Shown here: one piece after another, positions 34,733 to 44,530 of the stretch
Layout: the number at the start of each line of letters is the position of its first letter
Position numbering within the stretch: the first letter of the stretch is position 1
Assembly (NCBI RefSeq): GCF_055900595.2
Contig: NZ_CM148325.1
DNA length: 64,000 nucleotides
Strand: one strand, 5' to 3'
Position numbers and translations under genes: made by a program
Notes under the pieces: model-generated
What the model was told of the DNA's origin: nothing
Seen by the model: the letters and a program-made list of their open reading frames with translations, nothing else
The model's database searches: none

Positions 34733-37409
34733 CGAACCCTTACGTCCCGACCCCGATCGTCTGCTGGAACAAACTGCCGCGCCGCATCGGGGGAAGCTGA
34801 AAGTTTTTTTCGGTGCCTGTGCAGGCGTCGGGAAGACCTGGGCGATGCTGGCAGAAGCCCAACGACTGCGGGCGCAAGGGCTGGATATTGTGGTTGGCGT
34901 GGTTGAAACTCACGGACGGAAAGATACCGCCGCAATGCTGGAAGGGCTGGCTGTTCTGCCGCTAAAACGCCAGGCGTACCGTGGGCGGCATATCAGCGAG
35001 TTTGATCTCGATGCCGCCCTCGCCCGCCGTCCGGCGCTGATCTTAATGGACGAACTGGCGCACAGTAATGCGCCAGGTTCTCGTCATCCTAAACGCTGGC
35101 AGGACATTGAAGAGCTGCTGGAAGCAGGCATTGATGTTTTCACTACCGTCAACGTTCAGCATCTGGAAAGTCTGAATGATGTGGTCAGTGGCGTCACCGG
35201 AATTCAGGTGCGGGAAACCGTGCCCGATCCCTTTTTTGATGCTGCCGACGACGTAGTGCTGGTGGACTTGCCCCCGGACGATCTGCGTCAACGGCTGAAA
35301 GAAGGCAAAGTCTATATTGCCGGGCAGGCGGAGCGCGCCATTGAACATTTTTTCCGCAAAGGCAATCTGATCGCCCTGCGCGAACTGGCACTGCGCCGTA
35401 CTGCCGATCGCGTAGATGAGCAAATGCGCGCCTGGCGGGGGCATCCTGGCGAAGAGAAAGTCTGGCACACGCGCGACGCGATCCTTTTATGCATCGGGCA
35501 TAACATCGGTAGTGAGAAACTGGTCCGCGCGGCGGCGCGGCTGGCGTCACGGCTGGGTAGCGTCTGGCACGCGGTGTATGTTGAAACCCCTGCCCTGCAT
35601 CGCTTACCGGAGAAAAAACGTCGGGCAATTCTCAGCGCCTTACGTCTGGCGCAGGAGCTGGGCGCGGAGACAGCAACACTTTCTGATCCGGCGGAAGAAA
35701 AAGCCGTAGTGCGTTATGCCCGTGAACATAATCTCGGCAAGATTATTCTCGGTCGCCCGGCCTCACGCCGCTGGTGGCGTCGGGAAACTTTTGCTGACCG
35801 ACTGGCGCGCATCGCCCCCGATCTCGATCAGGTGCTGGTCGCGCTTGATGAACCACCCGCCCGCACGATTAACAACGCGCCGGATAGCCGCTCTTTTAAA
35901 GACAAGTGGCGGGTACAAATTCAGGGATGCGTGGTTGCCGCCGCGTTATGCGCCGTTATCACCTTAATTGCCATGCAATGGCTGATGGCGTTTGATGCCG
36001 CCAACCTGGTGATGCTGTATCTGCTTGGCGTGGTGGTAGTGGCACTGTTTTATGGACGCTGGCCTTCGGTGCTTGCTACCGTCATTAATGTGGTGAGTTT
36101 CGATCTCTTTTTTATCGCCCCACGCGGCACGCTCGCCGTCTCTGATGTGCAGTATCTGCTGACTTTCGCGGTGATGTTAACCGTCGGGCTGGTGATCGGG
36201 AATCTTACTGCTGGCGTACGTTATCAGGCGCGGGTAGCCCGTTACCGCGAGCAACGCACACGACACTTATATGAAATGTCGAAAGCTCTGGCTGTGGGCC
36301 GCAGTCCGCAGGACATCGCCGCCACCAGCGAACAATTTATTGCTTCTACATTTCATGCCCGCAGCCAGGTGTTGTTGCCCGATGACAAAGGTAAATTACA
36401 GCCGTTAACACATCCGCAAGGAATGACGCCGTGGGAAGATGCCATCGCGCAGTGGAGTTTTGATAAAGGCCTGCCTGCGGGCGCGGGCACCGACACGTTA
36501 CCCGGTGTGCCATACCAGATTTTGCCGTTAAAAAGCGGCGAGAAAACCTACGGACTGGTGGTGGTGGAACCGGGGAATCTGCGCCAGTTGATGATCCCGG
36601 AACAGCAACGCCTGCTGGAGACGTTTACGTTGTTAGTCGCCAATGCCCTGGAACGCCTGACGCTGACCGCCAGCGAAGAACAGGCGCGGATGGCAAGCGA
36701 ACGTGAACAGATCCGCAACGCCCTGCTGGCGGCGCTTTCGCACGATTTACGCACGCCGCTTACGGTGCTGTTCGGTCAGGCAGAAATCTTAACGCTCGAT
36801 CTGGCAAGCGAAGGATCGCCCCACGCCCACCAGGCCAGCGAGATTCGTCAGCATGTGCTGAACACGACCCGACTGGTGAATAATCTACTGGATATGGCGC
36901 GAATTCAGTCCGGCGGCTTTAATTTGAAGAAAGAGTGGTTAACGCTGGAAGAAGTGGTCGGCAGCGCGCTGCAAATGCTGGAACCGGGTTTATCGTCGCC
37001 CATCAATCTTTCTCTGCCAGAACCGCTGACCTTAATCCACGTTGACGGGCCACTCTTTGAACGGGTGCTGATTAATCTGCTGGAGAACGCGGTGAAATAC
37101 GCGGGTGCACAGGCCGAAATTGGTATCGATGCCCACGTTGAGGGCGAAAATCTACAACTGGATGTCTGGGATAACGGCCCCGGTCTTCCGCCAGGCCAGG
37201 AGCAGACGATATTCGATAAGTTTGCCCGCGGGAATAAAGAGTCGGCGGTGCCGGGCGTCGGGCTTGGGCTGGCAATTTGTCGGGCGATTGTGGATGTACA
37301 CGGCGGCACCATTACCGCGTTCAACCGACCGGAAGGTGGTGCCTGTTTTCGTGTTACACTTCCCCAGCAAACTGCCCCTGAACTTGAAGAATTTCATGAG
37401 GATATGTGA
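34725..37409 (+). CDS. kdpD: sensor histidine kinase KdpD
   Basis: 894 aa from [14 protein letters not shown]; KdpD N-terminal domain, four TM helices, HisKA (SHDLRTPL) and HATPase domains; overlaps kdpC by 8 nt. Confidence 0.96.
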
Positions 37410-38083
37410 CAAACGTTCTGATTGTTGAAGATGAACAGGCTATTCGTCGCTTTCTGCGCACGGCGCTGGAGGGTGACGGTATGCGCGTTTTTGAAGCCGA
37501 AACGCTGCAACGGGGGCTGCTGGAAGCGGCAACTCGTAAGCCAGATTTGATTATTCTCGATCTCGGCCTGCCAGACGGTGATGGGATTGAGTTTATCCGC
37601 GACCTGCGCCAGTGGAGCGCGGTGCCGGTGATTGTGCTTTCCGCACGTAGCGAAGAGAGCGACAAAATCGCCGCGCTGGATGCTGGAGCGGATGATTACC
37701 TGAGTAAGCCGTTTGGCATTGGTGAATTGCAGGCCCGTCTGCGCGTTGCTTTACGCCGCCACTCTGCTACCACCGCGCCCGATCCGCGGGTGAAATTTTC
37801 TGATGTTACCGTCGATTTAGCCGCCCGCGTGATTCACCGCAGTGAGGAAGAGGTGCATCTCACCCCGATTGAATTCCGCCTGCTGGCGGTGCTGCTCAAC
37901 AATGCCGGAAAAGTGCTCACCCAGCGCCAGTTACTCATTCAGGTGTGGGGACCAAACGCGGTCGAACACAGCCATTATTTGCGTATTTATATGGGGCATC
38001 TGCGACAAAAACTGGAGCAAGATCCCGCCCGCCCTCGCCATTTTATTACTGAAACCGGTATTGGGTATCGGTTTATGCCATGA
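37406..38083 (+). CDS. kdpE: response regulator KdpE (OmpR family)
   Basis: 225 aa, receiver domain with IILDLGLPDGDG and winged-helix C-terminus; GTG start overlaps the kdpD stop. Confidence 0.95.
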   Translation: MTNVLIVEDEQAIRRFLRTALEGDGMRVFEAETLQRGLLEAATRKPDLIILDLGLPDGDGIEFIRDLRQWSAVPVIVLSARSEESDKIAALDAGADDYLSKPFGIGELQARLRVALRRHSATTAPDPRVKFSDVTVDLAARVIHRSEEEVHLTPIEFRLLAVLLNNAGKVLTQRQLLIQVWGPNAVEHSHYLRIYMGHLRQKLEQDPARPRHFITETGIGYRFMP

Positions 38084-38357
38084 ATTATTATTCAATAAAT
38101 ACGCTTAACTAATTATTAATTTATTATTAAACCTGCCCCGAAAATTATTATTTGGCAGGTTTAATTTCTTAATGAAAATATAACCTACGAAATTGCAACA
38201 TTTAAACAACAAAACAGCATCTAATATGGCGCTATTCATAATTAACGATTTATTATTTGGGGTGTGATCGTTTTTTGTTGATCTTCTTCACAGTTTATAG
38301 CCTTTTCATGGATAGAATAACTCTACCTTCAACTGACACAGCAAAAGGTAAAGGTAA

Positions 38358-38462
38358 ATGGAAAATAATAACCGCTTAATGCCTCATATAAGGCGGACAA
38401 CCCATATCATGAAGTTTGCCCATCGTAATAGTTTTGACTTTCATTTCTTTAATGCCCGTTAG
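38358..38462 (+). CDS. speFL: speF leader arrest peptide (ornithine sensor)
   Basis: 34-codon ORF MENNNRLMPHIRRTTHIMKFAHRNSFDFHFFNAR about 310 bp upstream of speF, closely matching the known SpeFL peptide. Confidence 0.8.
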   Translation: MENNNRLMPHIRRTTHIMKFAHRNSFDFHFFNAR

Positions 38463-38772
38463 TCTTCTGACTAAAGGGCACCCCAGCGTACAGGTCTCCC
38501 TGACTTTAAGCATTACAGGTTAATACCTGTATCCCTCGGTGCTCATATACTGCTAACCCTTTTAAACTCTAAATAATTCAAGTCGCAGCACTAGCAACTT
38601 GAAGTATGACGAGTATAGCCAGTTACCGGGCTGGTCTGGGTTATTGCATCTGCAAAAAGCAAACTACTGATTTATTTATCAGCGGTGGAGTTTTGCTTTT
38701 TTTCCGGCGTGATCGATTTCTCCTCTGAGAAATTGAGGACCTGCTATTACCTGAAATAAAGAGATGAACAAA

Positions 38773-40971
38773 ATGTCAGAATTAAAAATTGCCGTTAGTC
38801 GTTCTTGCCCGGATTGTTTTTCCACTCATCGTGCATGCGTGAATATTGACGAAAGTAATTATATTGACGTTGCCGCCATTATTTTATCAGTCAATGATGT
38901 TGAACGTGGAAAACTCGATGAAATAGACGCTACTGGCTATGGCATTCCTGTTTTTATTGCAACGGAAAATGAAGAACGTGTACCAGCAGAATATCTGCCA
39001 CGTATTACTGGTGTCTTCGAGCATTGTGAATCACGGAAAGAATTTTACGGACGTCAGTTAGAAACCGCTGCCAGCCATTATGAAACGCAGTTGCGCCCGC
39101 CCTTCTTCCGCGCACTGGTCGATTATGTCAATCAGGGCAATAGCGCTTTTGACTGCCCGGGTCATCAGGGGGGTGAGTTTTTCCGTCGCCATCCGGCAGG
39201 CAATCAGTTCGTGGAATATTTTGGTGAAATGCTCTTCCGCTCCGACTTGTGTAATGCCGACGTAGCAATGGGCGATCTACTGATTCATGAAGGTGCGCCA
39301 TGCATTGCACAGCAACATGCGGCTAAAGTGTTTAATGCCGATAAAACGTACTTTGTTTTAAACGGCACCTCCTCTTCCAACAAAGTGGTTTTAAACGCCC
39401 TGCTAACACCGGGTGATCTGGTGCTGTTTGACCGCAATAACCATAAGTCTAACCACCACGGGGCCTTGCTACAGGCTGGTGCAACACCGGTTTATCTGGA
39501 AACAGCACGTAACCCGTATGGTTTTATCGGTGGTATTGATGCGCACTGCTTCGAAGAAAGTTATCTGCGTGAACTGATTAGAGAAGTTGCACCGCAACGG
39601 GCAAAAGAGGCGCGTCCGTTCCGCCTCGCTGTGATTCAGTTAGGCACCTACGACGGTACTATTTATAACGCCCGCCAGGTGGTGGATAAAATCGGTCATC
39701 TGTGTGACTACATCCTGTTTGACTCAGCATGGGTCGGCTATGAACAGTTTATTCCGATGATGGCGGACTGTTCGCCGCTGCTACTGGAGCTTAATGAGAA
39801 CGATCCGGGTATTCTGGTTACGCAATCTGTACATAAGCAGCAGGCTGGTTTTTCTCAGACTTCACAAATTCATAAAAAAGACAGCCATATCAAAGGGCAA
39901 CAGCGTTATGTCCCGCACAAACGCATGAACAACGCCTTTATGATGCACGCCTCCACCAGCCCGTTCTATCCGCTGTTTGCCGCACTGGATATTAACGCCA
40001 AAATGCATGAAGGTGTCAGCGGTCGTAATATGTGGATGGATTGTGTGGTTAACGGTATTAATGCCCGCAAATTGATCCTCGATAACTGTCAGCACATTCG
40101 TCCGTTCGTTCCTGAACTGGTGGATGGTAAACCCTGGCAATCGTATGAAACAGCGCAAATTGCGGTTGATCTGCGCTTCTTTAAATTTGTACCCGGTGAG
40201 CACTGGCATTCTTTTGAAGGTTACGCAGAGAACCAATACTTTGTCGATCCGTGCAAACTGTTGCTGACAACTCCTGGCATTGATGCACGTAACGGCGAAT
40301 ATGAAGCATTCGGTGTACCCGCGACGATTCTTGCTAACTTCCTGCGCGAAAATGGCGTAGTGCCGGAAAAATGCGATCTTAACTCCATCCTCTTCCTGCT
40401 GACTCCGGCAGAAGATATGGCCAAACTGCAGCAACTTGTTGCCCTGCTGGTACGCTTCGAAAAACTACTGGAAGCTGATGCGCCTCTGGCGGAAGTATTG
40501 CCTTCCATCTACAAACAGCATGAAGAGCGCTACGCCGGTTATACCCTGCGTCAGTTGTGCCAGGAAATGCATGATTTGTATGCCCGTCACAACGTGAAAC
40601 AACTGCAAAAAGAGATGTTCCGTAAGGAACACTTCCCACGCGTCAGCATGAATCCACAGGAAGCCAACTATGCCTACTTACGCGGTGAAGTGGAATTGGT
40701 TCGTCTGCCGGATGCAGAAGGCCGTATCGCAGCCGAAGGTGCGCTTCCTTATCCTCCGGGTGTGCTGTGTGTTGTTCCGGGTGAAATCTGGGGTGGTGCT
40801 GTTCTGCATTACTTCAGCGCTCTGGAAGAAGGGATCAACCTGCTGCCAGGTTTTGCACCGGAGCTGCAGGGTGTCTATATCGAAGAACATGATGGTCGTA
40901 AGCAAGTTTGGTGCTATGTCATCAAGCCTCGTGATGCGCAAAGCACCCTGTTGAAAGGGGAAAAATTATGA
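38773..40971 (+). CDS. speF: inducible ornithine decarboxylase
   Basis: 732 aa from MSELKIAVS; Orn/Lys/Arg decarboxylase major domain. Confidence 0.96.
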   Translation: MSELKIAVSRSCPDCFSTHRACVNIDESNYIDVAAIILSVNDVERGKLDEIDATGYGIPVFIATENEERVPAEYLPRITGVFEHCESRKEFYGRQLETAASHYETQLRPPFFRALVDYVNQGNSAFDCPGHQGGEFFRRHPAGNQFVEYFGEMLFRSDLCNADVAMGDLLIHEGAPCIAQQHAAKVFNADKTYFVLNGTSSSNKVVLNALLTPGDLVLFDRNNHKSNHHGALLQAGATPVYLETARNPYGFIGGIDAHCFEESYLRELIREVAPQRAKEARPFRLAVIQLGTYDGTIYNARQVVDKIGHLCDYILFDSAWVGYEQFIPMMADCSPLLLELNENDPGILVTQSVHKQQAGFSQTSQIHKKDSHIKGQQRYVPHKRMNNAFMMHASTSPFYPLFAALDINAKMHEGVSGRNMWMDCVVNGINARKLILDNCQHIRPFVPELVDGKPWQSYETAQIAVDLRFFKFVPGEHWHSFEGYAENQYFVDPCKLLLTTPGIDARNGEYEAFGVPATILANFLRENGVVPEKCDLNSILFLLTPAEDMAKLQQLVALLVRFEKLLEADAPLAEVLPSIYKQHEERYAGYTLRQLCQEMHDLYARHNVKQLQKEMFRKEHFPRVSMNPQEANYAYLRGEVELVRLPDAEGRIAAEGALPYPPGVLCVVPGEIWGGAVLHYFSALEEGINLLPGFAPELQGVYIEEHDGRKQVWCYVIKPRDAQSTLLKGEKL

Positions 40972-42287
40972 GTCAGGCTAAATCGAACAAAATGGGCGTC
41001 GTTCAGTTAACCATACTGACGATGGTCAACATGATGGGCTCCGGCATCATCATGCTGCCGACAAAGCTTGCCGAAGTTGGGACAATCTCAATAATCTCCT
41101 GGTTGGTGACAGCCGTAGGCTCAATGGCGCTGGCATGGGCATTCGCAAAATGCGGTATGTTCAGCCGTAAATCAGGCGGTATGGGCGGTTATGCCGAGTA
41201 TGCTTTCGGTAAATCCGGTAACTTTATGGCGAACTATACCTACGGCGTCTCGCTGCTGATTGCTAACGTGGCGATTGCTATTTCGGCAGTTGGTTACGGC
41301 ACCGAACTGCTCGGCGCGAGTTTGTCACCAGTGCAGATTGGTCTGGCAACCATCGGAGTGCTGTGGATTTGTACCGTGGCTAACTTTGGTGGTGCGCGCA
41401 TTACCGGGCAAATCAGTAGCATTACCGTGTGGGGGGTCATTATTCCGGTGGTAGGCCTGTGCGTTATCGGCTGGTTCTGGTTTAGCCCGACACTTTACGT
41501 TGATTCCTGGAATCCGCATCATGCACCGTTCTTCAGTGCGGTAGGTTCTTCCATCGCCATGACGCTGTGGGCTTTTCTTGGTCTGGAGTCTGCGTGTGCG
41601 AATACTGATGTAGTGGAAAACCCGGAACGTAATGTGCCAATCGCGGTACTCGGCGGTACGTTAGGTGCGGCGGTGATTTATATCGTCTCCACCAACGTGA
41701 TTGCCGGGATTGTGCCCAATATGGAGCTGGCAAATTCAACGGCACCATTTGGTCTGGCCTTCGCGCAAATGTTCACACCGGAAGTGGGTAAAGTCATTAT
41801 GGCGCTGATGGTGATGTCCTGCTGCGGTTCACTGCTTGGCTGGCAGTTCACCATTGCCCAGGTGTTTAAATCTTCATCTGATGAAGGCTACTTCCCTAAA
41901 ATTTTCTCCCGTGTAACCAAAGTGGATGCACCGGTTCAGGGGATGTTGACCATTGTGATTATTCAGAGTGGATTGGCACTGATGACCATTAGCCCGTCAC
42001 TGAACAGCCAGTTCAACGTGCTGGTTAACCTGGCCGTGGTGACCAATATCATCCCATATATTCTGTCGATGGCGGCATTAGTCATTATTCAGAAGGTCGC
42101 CAATGTGCCACCATCAAAAGCGAAAGTAGCAAACTTTGTTGCCTTTGTTGGTGCGATGTACAGTTTCTATGCGCTGTACTCATCCGGGGAAGAAGCCATG
42201 CTGTACGGTTCCATCGTGACTTTCCTTGGTTGGACACTGTATGGTCTGGTATCACCACGCTTTGAACTGAAAAACAAACACGGTTAA
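40968..42287 (+). CDS. potE: putrescine:ornithine antiporter (APC family)
   Basis: 439 aa, 12 TM; overlaps the speF stop. Confidence 0.96.
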   Translation: MSQAKSNKMGVVQLTILTMVNMMGSGIIMLPTKLAEVGTISIISWLVTAVGSMALAWAFAKCGMFSRKSGGMGGYAEYAFGKSGNFMANYTYGVSLLIANVAIAISAVGYGTELLGASLSPVQIGLATIGVLWICTVANFGGARITGQISSITVWGVIIPVVGLCVIGWFWFSPTLYVDSWNPHHAPFFSAVGSSIAMTLWAFLGLESACANTDVVENPERNVPIAVLGGTLGAAVIYIVSTNVIAGIVPNMELANSTAPFGLAFAQMFTPEVGKVIMALMVMSCCGSLLGWQFTIAQVFKSSSDEGYFPKIFSRVTKVDAPVQGMLTIVIIQSGLALMTISPSLNSQFNVLVNLAVVTNIIPYILSMAALVIIQKVANVPPSKAKVANFVAFVGAMYSFYALYSSGEEAMLYGSIVTFLGWTLYGLVSPRFELKNKHG

Positions 42288-42306
42288 AAAAAGCGAAATA
42301 AATATC

Positions 42307-42330
42307 CTCCGGCATAGCCGGAGGTTTTTC
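42307..42330 (+). terminator. potE intrinsic terminator
   Basis: Hairpin CCTCCGGC-ATA-GCCGGAGG followed by TTTTT. Confidence 0.85.
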
Positions 42331-42332
42331 AA

Positions 42333-43040
42333 ATGCGCCTGTAAGGCTCTGTTACCAGCCGCGCCCTAACAGGCGCATACGATCTGACATTTGCATTCAA
42401 CTTCGTTACTTACGGCCCGTAAACGGGCTGCCCGGATATGGAATCGATAACTGCTCCCCCATTTTATCCTCTTCAAGCTGGTGCTTTATGTAGTCCTGTA
42501 TCTTCGCCGTGTTCTTACCCACCGTATCGACATAGTACCCTCGGCACCAGAACTCCCTGTTTCTGTATTTGAATTTCAAATCCCCAAACTGCTCGTAAAG
42601 CATCAGACTGCTTTTCCCTTTCAGATATCCCATAAAGCCGGATACGCTCATTTTGGGTGGGATTTCCACAAGCATATGGATATGATCTGCGCAGCACTCT
42701 GCTTCCAGAATCCGTACGCTTTTCCACTCACACAGCTTTCTCAAAATACTGCCTATCGCCCTACGCTTCTCTCCGTAAAACGCCAGTCTTCGGTATTTCG
42801 GCGCAAAAACTATGTGATATTTACAGTTCCAGCGGGTGTGCGCTAAGCTCTTTTCGTCCCCCATTGGGACCCCCTTTTGATTTCTTGTTTGACACTTGCA
42901 GTTGCCAGACCGCAAGGTGTTTTAACAAATCAAAAGGGGTTTTAATAACTGGCTCAAAGCTGAAAGCTTTCCGGAACCCCCAGCCTAGCTGGGGGTTTTC
43001 TGTGCACAAAAAAAGGGCGATTGAATGATCGCCCTTTCTG
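42333..43040 (-). mobile_element. IS200-like insertion sequence (IS200/IS605 family); boundaries approximate
   Basis: Contains a 152-aa Y1 HUH transposase gene; structured ends without long terminal inverted repeats (GC hairpin AGGGCGAT...ATCGCCCT with a U-run near one end, perfect 10-bp inverted repeat ATGCGCCTGT/ACAGGCGCAT near the other); inferred length about 708 bp. Confidence 0.65.
42406..42864 (-). CDS. tnpA: IS200-type transposase TnpA (Y1 HUH)
   Basis: 152 aa from MGDEKSLAHTRWNCKYHIVFAPKYRR...ADHIHMLVEIPPKMSVS; HUH motif HIHMLV and a conserved Tyr region. Confidence 0.88.
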   Translation of the reverse strand: MGDEKSLAHTRWNCKYHIVFAPKYRRLAFYGEKRRAIGSILRKLCEWKSVRILEAECCADHIHMLVEIPPKMSVSGFMGYLKGKSSLMLYEQFGDLKFKYRNREFWCRGYYVDTVGKNTAKIQDYIKHQLEEDKMGEQLSIPYPGSPFTGRK

Positions 43041-43078
43041 TTTGTTGACAAAGAGTTCGTTATTTATGCCGCATCCGG

Positions 43079-43221
43079 CAGGTGTAGGATCCAAACGCGG
43101 TCGAACACAGCAACTATTTGCGTAATTATATGAGGCATTTGCGACAAAAACTGGAACAGGATCACGTCCGCCCCGCCATTTCATTACTGAAACCGGTATT
43201 GGGTATCGGTTTATGCTTTGA
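43079..43221 (+). pseudogene. degenerate duplicate of the kdpE 3' end
   Basis: About 140 bp at roughly 85-90% identity to kdpE 37950-38083, with several substitutions and a 1-nt indel that breaks the frame. Confidence 0.7.
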
Positions 43222-43344
43222 AAAAAGTGGCAATGTATGGATAAAGTCATTTTTTATTCAAATATAAGGAACTTAATATTTAAAAAATGTCCCATACAAT
43301 GCCTCATCATAAATGACACCGTAGCACACAAGGAGCAAGTAGCG

Positions 43345-43995
43345 ATGCGTGAAGTGAGTCAGTTAGTAAATACTGAAGATTCAGCCTGGACAATAATCCA
43401 GAATTGGTTAAAAGAAGCCACAAACCATGCCGAACTCTTACCGGTTAATAAAGATTTAGCCGAAACCGCACTTTATCAATTACAGGTTACAACAAAATCA
43501 CCGATGGGTGCGCTTGTCTATGGCTCCGGAGGTCTGCTGATTGATAACGGTTGGTTACGCATATCAGGCTCTGGTCACCCCCGGTTACCACGAGATCCAG
43601 CAAGTTGGACACAACGCCCTGAATTCGCAAGCGTGCGGGCTTTACCCATCGCCGATGATGTCGCAGGGGGAATTTTTGCTCTTAATGGTGGCGATCTTGG
43701 GGAAGATACTGGCTGCGTTTATTATTTTGCGCCAGATACGCTGAATTGGGAAAGTCTGGAGGTTGGATATTCTGAGTTTCTTCAGTGGGCATTATCCGGT
43801 GATTTAGATACCTTCTATGAAAATGTACGCTGGCCGCAATGGCAAGAAGACGTAATAAAATTATCGGCAACGGAAGCCTTCACTTTCTACCCTTTCTTAT
43901 GGGTACAAAGTGAAGAAGCAAGAACAAGAAAAGTTATTTCGCTTACTGAACTCTGGGAAATGCAGTATCAAATGAAAGAAACAATCACGCAATAA
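43345..43995 (+). CDS. conserved hypothetical protein (positionally the ybfG locus)
   Basis: 216 aa from MREVSQLVNTEDSAWTIIQNWLKEATNH, with a strong AAGGAG SD 9 nt upstream; the longer ORF from 43237 lacks an RBS; family not verified. Confidence 0.6.
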   Translation: MREVSQLVNTEDSAWTIIQNWLKEATNHAELLPVNKDLAETALYQLQVTTKSPMGALVYGSGGLLIDNGWLRISGSGHPRLPRDPASWTQRPEFASVRALPIADDVAGGIFALNGGDLGEDTGCVYYFAPDTLNWESLEVGYSEFLQWALSGDLDTFYENVRWPQWQEDVIKLSATEAFTFYPFLWVQSEEARTRKVISLTELWEMQYQMKETITQ

Positions 43996-44035
43996 GACAT
44001 GTTCAGGTCCGGGTTTCATTCCCGGACTCGCTATT

Positions 44036-44530
44036 TTAATGTGTGTTTATCGCTTTCAATTCTTGCTGGCAATTTTCTGACTGACAGCGTCGCAACTCAA
44101 TAATCCCGACATGCATCATCGAGCCAAAAAATCCGCTTTCGCTGACATAATCCTCATTAACTATCGGTCGAGTGCCGGGCTTACCCTGGCAAATCCCCAT
44201 AAAAAATGAGGTGTAGCATTGCCATTCAGGATTTAAACCGGTCTTTTCTTGTGCTGACATATCATGAAGATAAGTAAGTTCTTTTTCGTTCCCGCCTGAC
44301 AACTGCCAGCGGCGGGTATTATCAGGTAAGTTATCGCCACGGCAATTTGTCTTACACCGGGAAGGCGCAATATTTACCGCAATGCTACCCGTTAATCCTC
44401 TGGTTTTATCTTTAGGGGTCAGTAACCAGTCACCAGCTAATGATGATTGTTCAGGTTGGGCGCATGCTGTCAGCAGTAGTGTGGCGGTAATTAATGCCAC
44501 TCTGACGACCAGACTCCTTTTGGTCTTCAT
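44036..44530 (-). CDS. ybfP: lipoprotein YbfP
   Basis: 164 aa from MKTKRSLVVRVALITATLLLTAC, with lipobox LLTAC. Confidence 0.8.
   Translation of the reverse strand: MKTKRSLVVRVALITATLLLTACAQPEQSSLAGDWLLTPKDKTRGLTGSIAVNIAPSRCKTNCRGDNLPDNTRRWQLSGGNEKELTYLHDMSAQEKTGLNPEWQCYTSFFMGICQGKPGTRPIVNEDYVSESGFFGSMMHVGIIELRRCQSENCQQELKAINTH

Follow-up and report, generated by a model that had tools for sequence, protein, structure and literature searches.

Does the short open reading frame (ORF) that precedes speF in the 64,000-nt stretch of DNA analysed here (the window) encode the ornithine-sensing leader peptide SpeFL, and does the RNA around it carry the elements through which that peptide is published to control the speF-potE operon? 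A sequence-only reading of the window had proposed a 34-codon ORF upstream of speF, missed by an ORF track with a 60-aa cut-off and essentially identical to the known SpeFL. The reading frame was found as proposed. Positions 38358–38462 (+) open with ATG, run on for another 33 sense codons and close with TAG, and the translation, MENNNRLMPHIRRTTHIMKFAHRNSFDFHFFNAR, agreed with the proposed one letter for letter; with 34 amino acids the product does fall below the cut-off of the track. Functional leader peptides, this being the practical lesson, stay hidden in ORF tracks of that kind. The reverse strand of the same interval contains an internal stop codon. As many as 147 ORFs with a product of 20 aa or longer overlap the 10 kb around speFL, and the case for the gene consequently rests on sequence identity and not on the openness of the frame.

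This identity is close. Aligned with the SpeFL chain of PDB entries 6TBV and 6TC3, the peptide was identical in 32 of 34 residues (E = 1.7e-18), the substitutions S5N and T7L being the sole differences, and it matched Pfam family PF10940 (SpeFL, formerly DUF2618) over residues 7–33 with 27.9 bits (E = 2.1e-6), the curated cut-off of this family being 25 bits. RefSeq has the identical protein as WP_001312672.1, ‘leader peptide SpeFL’, and annotates it as speFL in Escherichia coli EC42405 and EC01307. With EC42405 the whole kdpE-speF intergenic region shares 99.9% identity, and the 105-nt speFL gene annotated there has the same translation as in the window. An NCBIfam scan of the peptide returned no family at E ≤ 0.01; since SpeFL is still the RefSeq name of the identical protein, this name must derive from other evidence, and the missing match is a library gap that carries no weight against membership in SpeFL.

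The order of genes at the locus agrees with this assignment. On the + strand kdpB-kdpC-kdpD-kdpE are followed by speFL, speF and potE, with no gene between speFL and speF, and the order kdpE-speFL-speF-potE is the same in K-12. The inducible ornithine decarboxylase gene speF (38773–40971, +) was recognised by NCBIfam TIGR04301 (1436 bits; cut-off 1310), its start being taken from RefSeq for an identical locus, and the putrescine-ornithine antiporter gene potE (40968–42287, +) by NF007938 (856 bits) and TIGR04299 (850 bits). An additional ATG at 38764, created by a 2-nt difference from K-12, lies in frame with speF, three codons upstream of the RefSeq start at 38773, and could give a product beginning with MNKMSELK. 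We consider it very likely that the 34-codon ORF represents speFL, which encodes the leader peptide of the E. coli speF-potE operon, and that it works as published for K-12 and Salmonella; nothing contradictory to this reading was encountered. What the analysis establishes directly is which peptide this is and where its gene lies, and also, as described below, that it contains rare codons, that a conserved hairpin spans the stop codon, that the pause consensus is matched and that distant parts of the leader are predicted to pair.

In K-12 SpeFL, residues 1–13 form the sensor and residues 14–34 the effector part; ornithine is accommodated in a pocket with Pro9, Arg12 and Arg13, the recognition loop being HIRRXXH at residues 10–16 (10.1101/604074). 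Stalling of the K-12 peptide is abolished by mutation of H10, I11, R12, R13 or H16 and by deletion of residues 1–7, and it is lost or impaired by alanine at F26, F28, F30 or F31, which together with F20 make up the phenylalanine core of the effector; N32 displaces U2585, and RF1 is thereby blocked at the UAG stop codon (10.1101/604074). In the window, P9 stands directly before HIRRTTH (codons 10–16, 38385–38405, +), and in the effector, or arrest, part (codons 20–34, 38415–38459, +) F20, R23, N24, F26, F28, F30, F31, N32, A33 and R34 are identical to 6TBV/6TC3. The arrest motif, the conservation of which the sequence-only reading had proposed to check, is thus retained from Pro9 and the HIRRTTH loop through the phenylalanine core to the N32-A33-R34-stop end. 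An earlier stop codon and substitutions in arrest-critical residues, either of which that reading had named as evidence against itself, are absent, S5N and T7L being located outside the residues shown to be critical by mutagenesis or structure. These two substitutions may have a quantitative effect on stalling, because they lie within the segment (residues 1–7) that K-12 stalling depends on; the published experiments were done with the K-12 peptide (S5, T7) and a 257-nt spacer (10.1101/604074).

To place the two substitutions among relatives, one genome per species was scanned with a degenerate motif pattern, which gave 77 loci, 67 of them with a 34-codon speFL. The pattern required H10, I11, R12, R13, H16, F26, F28, F30 and F31, and invariance at these positions is therefore by construction and not independent evidence. 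Among the 28 distinct peptides encoded at the 67 loci, position 5 is occupied by Asn in 20 and by Ser in eight, and position 7 by ten different residues (Leu in four); the N-terminus found most often in Citrobacter, Lelliottia, Atlantibacter and Kluyvera is MENNNRL. Two enterobacterial speFL loci were found under unexpected names, on a 2.2-kb contig of a Collinsella MAG (L048) and in Chryseobacterium sp. 18061 (L079). The former matches K-12 in its SpeFL peptide, stop-codon hairpin region and 257-nt spacer, and both look like contamination or mislabelling of public assemblies.

A run of rare codons, also noticed in the first reading, was confirmed with 27 long ORFs of the same window as the codon-usage reference. 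Codons 11–14 (38388–38399) read ATA AGG CGG ACA, with frequencies of 3.0 per 1000 for ATA at I11 (5% of Ile codons), 1.0 per 1000 for AGG at R12 (2% of Arg), 8.3 per 1000 for CGG at R13 (14% of Arg) and 5.3 per 1000 for ACA at T14 (10% of Thr); L7 TTA and P9 CCT are also uncommon by this reference. The four codons are identical in K-12, and AGG is the commonest codon 12 among other genera. The explanation offered for K-12 is that they space out ribosomes so that Rho can bind (10.1101/604074).

The last codons of speFL and its TAG are part of a hairpin (38453–38480, +; UGCCC.UUAGUC-UUCU-GACUAA.GGGCA) that corresponds to the published polymerase-pause hairpin. The fold of the 81 nt from 38420 to 38500 has −19.4 kcal/mol (z = −2.9), and none of 200 shuffled sequences folded as well. 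A hairpin at the same position was predicted in most Enterobacteriaceae loci, but not in Serratia, Cedecea or Ewingella. In the RNAalifold consensus of a 43-sequence alignment (43 species), compensatory changes were seen in three of eight consensus pairs; the wobble base of codon 32 and its non-coding downstream partner, for example, form U-A in 16, C-G in 16 and U-G in nine of the 43 sequences. Covariation of the inner stem is limited by bulges that shift the register between species, and only the eight-pair consensus was used. Directly after the hairpin, GGCACCCCAGCG (38477–38488, +) matches the pause consensus G-11 G-10 ... Y-1 G+1 (GGN8YG), which is given with its predicted role in the legend to Supplementary Fig. 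4 of the K-12 study (10.1101/604074). From this match, a premature 3′ end would be expected at 38487; the short transcript of Salmonella ends approximately 21 nt after the stop codon (PMC6386406).

A mildly C-rich, G-poor stretch (38380–38600, +) overlaps speFL in its 3′ part and continues into the sequence downstream. In 60-nt windows starting between 38360 and 38540 the C/G ratio ranges from 1.2 to 3.2, compared with 0.6–0.9 in most of those starting between 38580 and 38740; on base composition, the stretch of about 38360–38600 is consistent with a putative Rho utilisation (rut) region. A simple scan of the leader for intrinsic terminators detected none on its + strand, which fits Rho-dependent control.

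Further downstream, the stop-codon hairpin is followed by two local hairpins (38488–38504 and 38509–38543, +; fold of 38481–38548, −17.2 kcal/mol, z = −2.5), the first of which has the same position as the ‘DS’ hairpin of Salmonella. In the fold of the full leader, 38491–38497 pairs instead with 38737–38743, just upstream of the speF start, as in the alternative structures described in PMC6386406. Another hairpin, UCGAUUUCUC-CUCU-GAGAAAUUGA (38713–38736, +), precedes the speF ribosome-binding site, and its sequence hardly varies between species. The ribosome-binding site itself (AAGAG, 38759–38763) and the start codon at 38773 fall within a segment (38757–38784, +) predicted to pair with speFL codons 24–32 (38429–38451). 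In the minimum-energy fold of the full leader, 38440–38451 pairs with 38757–38768 and 38429–38438 with 38775–38784, and the duplex has −20.1 kcal/mol (z = −4.6), a value that none of 200 shuffled sequences reached. The equivalent pairing in K-12 is weaker (−12.6 kcal/mol, z = −1.2), and over 59 loci the median z is −1.5, long-range pairing being weak or absent in many species. For the window the duplex is thus a prediction from folding, and its inhibitory equivalent in Salmonella was verified by compensatory mutations (Ben-Zvi et al., PMC6386406). A stem of an A-run and a T-run (AAAAAGCAAA ... UUUGCUUUUUUU) around a small hairpin, CUGAU...AUCAG, at 38654–38701 has a terminator-like look; in the leader alignment it hardly changes from genus to genus, and its local fold is no better than that of shuffled sequences (z = −1.1).

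Upstream of speFL, blocks of sequence conserved in 16 Enterobacterales leaders, and between the window and K-12, delimit a probable promoter region (38265–38326, +). They include TGATC...TTGATC repeats (38265–38283, +), TTCACAG (38287–38293, +) and a −10-like TAGAAT (38313–38318, +), which is TAAAAT in other species; a simple promoter scan gave no convincing sigma-70 site at this conserved block. Because transcription in Salmonella has been mapped to start 31 nt upstream of the orf34 AUG (PMC6386406), we infer a start near 38325, about 33 nt before speFL. Between this point and the start codon, a Shine-Dalgarno-like AAAGG can be read twice (AAAGGTAAAGG, 38344–38354, +), and AAAGG/AGGA is conserved at the Shine-Dalgarno position in other species.

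These elements can be assembled into the following course of events, in which stalling, ornithine binding, Rho dependence and the transcription start are expected for the window leader by homology. The ornithine-dependent, puromycin-resistant stall at codons 33–34 has been shown for the K-12 allele only (10.1101/604074), and bicyclomycin-sensitive, i.e. Rho-dependent, control of speF has been shown in K-12 (10.1101/604074) and Salmonella (PMC6386406). The operon mRNA would start about 33 nt before speFL and a ribosome would translate the 34 codons, with the rare codons 11–14 slowing the ribosomes that follow, while RNA polymerase would pause just past the hairpin that contains the speFL stop codon. 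With ornithine scarce, the ribosome would terminate at UAG and depart, Rho would load on the exposed C-rich RNA, and transcription would end approximately 25 nt past the stop codon; the 3′ part of speFL could also pair with the speF ribosome-binding site. With ornithine abundant, 23S rRNA and the HIRRTTH loop of the growing peptide would together capture one molecule of it, and the C-terminal part, rich in Phe, would compact and block release factor 1. Rho would then find its site covered by the stalled ribosome and those queued behind it, which would also prevent the anti-RBS helix from closing, and speF and potE would be expressed.

Three other explanations of the locus have to be weighed against this one, and two of them concern the question whether the speFL frame is a gene at all. 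It might be a chance frame in a leader that acts as RNA only, through its structure or in a riboswitch-like manner, with the peptide being irrelevant. Short frames are indeed abundant, as the count of 147 in the surrounding 10 kb illustrates, and the entire leader is strongly structured (z = −5.3). However, codon differences from the window across the 67 loci comprise 779 synonymous and 234 non-synonymous ones, an excess that indicates selection on the SpeFL peptide; M1, E2, N3, N4, M8, M18, R23 and N32 are invariant without being demanded by the scan pattern, and the length of 34 codons is kept across genera. Experiments point the same way, since a double-frameshifted K-12 template loses stalling (10.1101/604074) and start-codon and premature-stop mutations in Salmonella abolish speF expression (PMC6386406). 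Nor did an Rfam scan of 37000–44500 with a permissive threshold yield any family in the leader beyond a chance-level isrH fragment (18 bits, E = 0.09) that falls on the 51-nt insert discussed below. We give this explanation practically no credence. Scarcely more probable, and still very improbable, is that the real gene is an overlapping ORF of 40–44 codons at about 38248–38379 (+), which covers the promoter and the first speFL codons and which many E. coli genomes in RefSeq list as a ‘hypothetical protein’ of 43–44 aa, one of them as a ‘TonB-dependent receptor’. This ORF has no Pfam match, is unannotated in K-12 and overlies the conserved promoter region. A related string, DRFLLIFFTV..., occurs in the speFL frame itself in Citrobacter braakii and in a Raoultella MAG and in another frame in the window, a shift between genera that fits conserved non-coding DNA; the annotation is probably a spurious gene call.

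The third explanation accepts the leader ORF and differs in what it senses. Its main signal would be the supply of arginine and not ornithine: at low arginine, ribosomes would pause at AGG CGG, which would favour the local downstream hairpin and a stable, translatable speF mRNA. We regard this as possible but doubtful for the window, and the same tentative standing applies to its high-arginine counterpart, in which uninterrupted translation would lead to a structure degraded by RNase G. The model and the experiments behind it, including the RNase G layer, were published for Salmonella (PMC6386406), and some of what it calls for is present here, namely AGG CGG at codons 12–13, the hairpin in the DS position (38488–38504) and the alternative pairing of 38491–38497 with 38737–38743. 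Against its transfer stand several differences. The spacer of Salmonella is longer (378–379 nt at two loci, against 310 nt), and its ‘ring-like’ part differs in sequence from that of the window, which makes transfer of the RNase G step uncertain. The hairpin in the DS position is weak when folded alone (−5.1 kcal/mol, 32 of 200 shuffles as good), and the rare codons have been ascribed in the K-12 study to ribosome spacing for Rho (10.1101/604074). The arginine layer complements the ornithine model rather than excluding it, and it may apply to the window leader as well. The ornithine-sensing speFL remains the reading that we prefer.

Among described systems, K-12 SpeFL (b4803; 6TBV, 6TC3; Herrero del Valle et al., 10.1101/604074) is the closest, with the same locus, the same length of 34 aa and the same UAG stop codon, and with 32 of 34 residues, HIRRTTH, the Phe core, the N-A-R end, ATA AGG CGG ACA and the stop-codon hairpin in common; the window differs in S5N and T7L, a 310-nt spacer, a 51-nt insert and the extra in-frame speF ATG. 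The orthologous 34-codon leader of Salmonella Typhimurium, orf34 (Ben-Zvi et al. 2019, PMC6386406), likewise contains AGG CGG, is subject to Rho-dependent termination just past the stop-codon hairpin, and pairs through its 3′ part with the speF ribosome-binding site; elements corresponding to this termination and pairing are predicted in the window. It ends in UGA (PMC6386406), whereas speFL of the window ends in TAG, its spacer of approximately 380 nt has a different middle part, and the loci of two Salmonella subspecies encode F7 and M19 in place of L7 and K19. TnaC of tnaCAB follows the same logic, in that a ribosome made to stall by a ligand, on reaching the stop codon of the leader ORF, hides a loading site for Rho (10.1101/604074), but it is an unrelated peptide with tryptophan as ligand, a UGA stop codon read by RF2 and another site in the tunnel, and is not a member of the family. 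MdtU, encoded by the ORF upstream of mdtJI, is polyamine-responsive and linked to premature Rho termination, and its authors propose an action like that of speFL (Adams et al. 2021, PMC7815308); with another peptide, spermidine as ligand and a mechanism that is not established, it offers an analogy only.

The structure, mechanism and genetics of speFL have already been described, and public genomes already carry its annotation. The one mildly new result of this analysis is a side observation, the natural occurrence of two leader alleles and the putatively repeat-derived insert in one of them. The E. coli kdpE-speF intergenic region exists in two deeply diverged versions, represented by 38084–38790 of the window and by K-12 (L003). 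Between the two, the flanking genes are about 94–96% identical, compared with a divergence of about 12% in the leader after speFL, and the speFL-speF spacer measures 310 nt in the window and 257 nt in K-12, owing to a 51-nt insert and small indels. Of 5426 complete E. coli genomes, 3317 (approximately 61%) carry a leader of the window type and 1700 one of the K-12 type, with about 400 having neither at full length; identity of at least 99% to 38084–38790 was found in only 14 genomes. The SpeFL mechanism has thus been worked out on a minority leader, and most E. coli, including the source of the window, carry the diverged type with its putatively repeat-derived hairpin. The two types appear not to have been compared before. 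We also considered, given the shared S5 and T7, that the K-12-type allele was imported from Citrobacter, and rejected this, as the K-12 flanks are about 80–82% identical to Citrobacter and 94–96% to the window.

The 51-nt insert, defined by alignment with K-12 (38562–38612, +), is palindromic, with a stem formed by 38577–38583 and 38597–38603, and folds with −14.3 kcal/mol (z = −3.6). Both its ends resemble ERIC termini, with about 19–20 of 25 bases matching copies in Kluyvera loci, and no second copy of its right end was found in the window. ERICs are imperfect palindromes, about 127 bp long, whose conserved core is matched by the primers ERIC1R and ERIC2. A full ERIC was rejected for the insert, which has 51 nt and lacks the core, the best matches to the two primers having 7 and 9 mismatches; it is at most a core-less ERIC derivative, as judged from the similarity of its ends. 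Full ERIC copies (approximately 125 nt) are present in other leaders, in Kluyvera (L008, L075, L080), Citrobacter (L047, L064) and Pluralibacter (L034), where they are placed differently, within the loop of the second hairpin that follows speFL. E. albertii (L004) and the divergent ‘E. coli E69’ (L029) also have an insert, at the site used in the window. A literature search that paired ERIC with speF returned nothing relevant. With its insert, the stronger predicted pairing to the ribosome-binding site and N5/L7, the window leader might set a different induction threshold for speF-potE, or a different mRNA stability, from that of K-12. We hold this to be rather unlikely; if true, the ornithine switch would exist in E. 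coli as two regulatory alleles.

The DNA downstream of potE also differs from K-12. An IS200 element at 42303–43008, right after potE and absent from K-12 and EC42405, contains tnpA (42406–42915, −) and a match to Rfam STnc490 (42874–42997, −). With a 1-kb query spanning this insertion, 11 complete E. coli genomes aligned over at least 80% of its length, and in eight of the 11, each with 15–17 matching places, the junction was 100% identical. Beyond the element, the kdpE 3′ end (37940–38084) recurs as a 145-nt copy at 43079–43222; this copy is about 90% identical to the original and is the counterpart of ybfI in K-12, a pseudogene that RefSeq describes as a frameshifted winged-helix fragment. 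It is followed by a DUF2625 gene at 43237–43995, ybfG, which is a pseudogene in K-12 and intact in the window.
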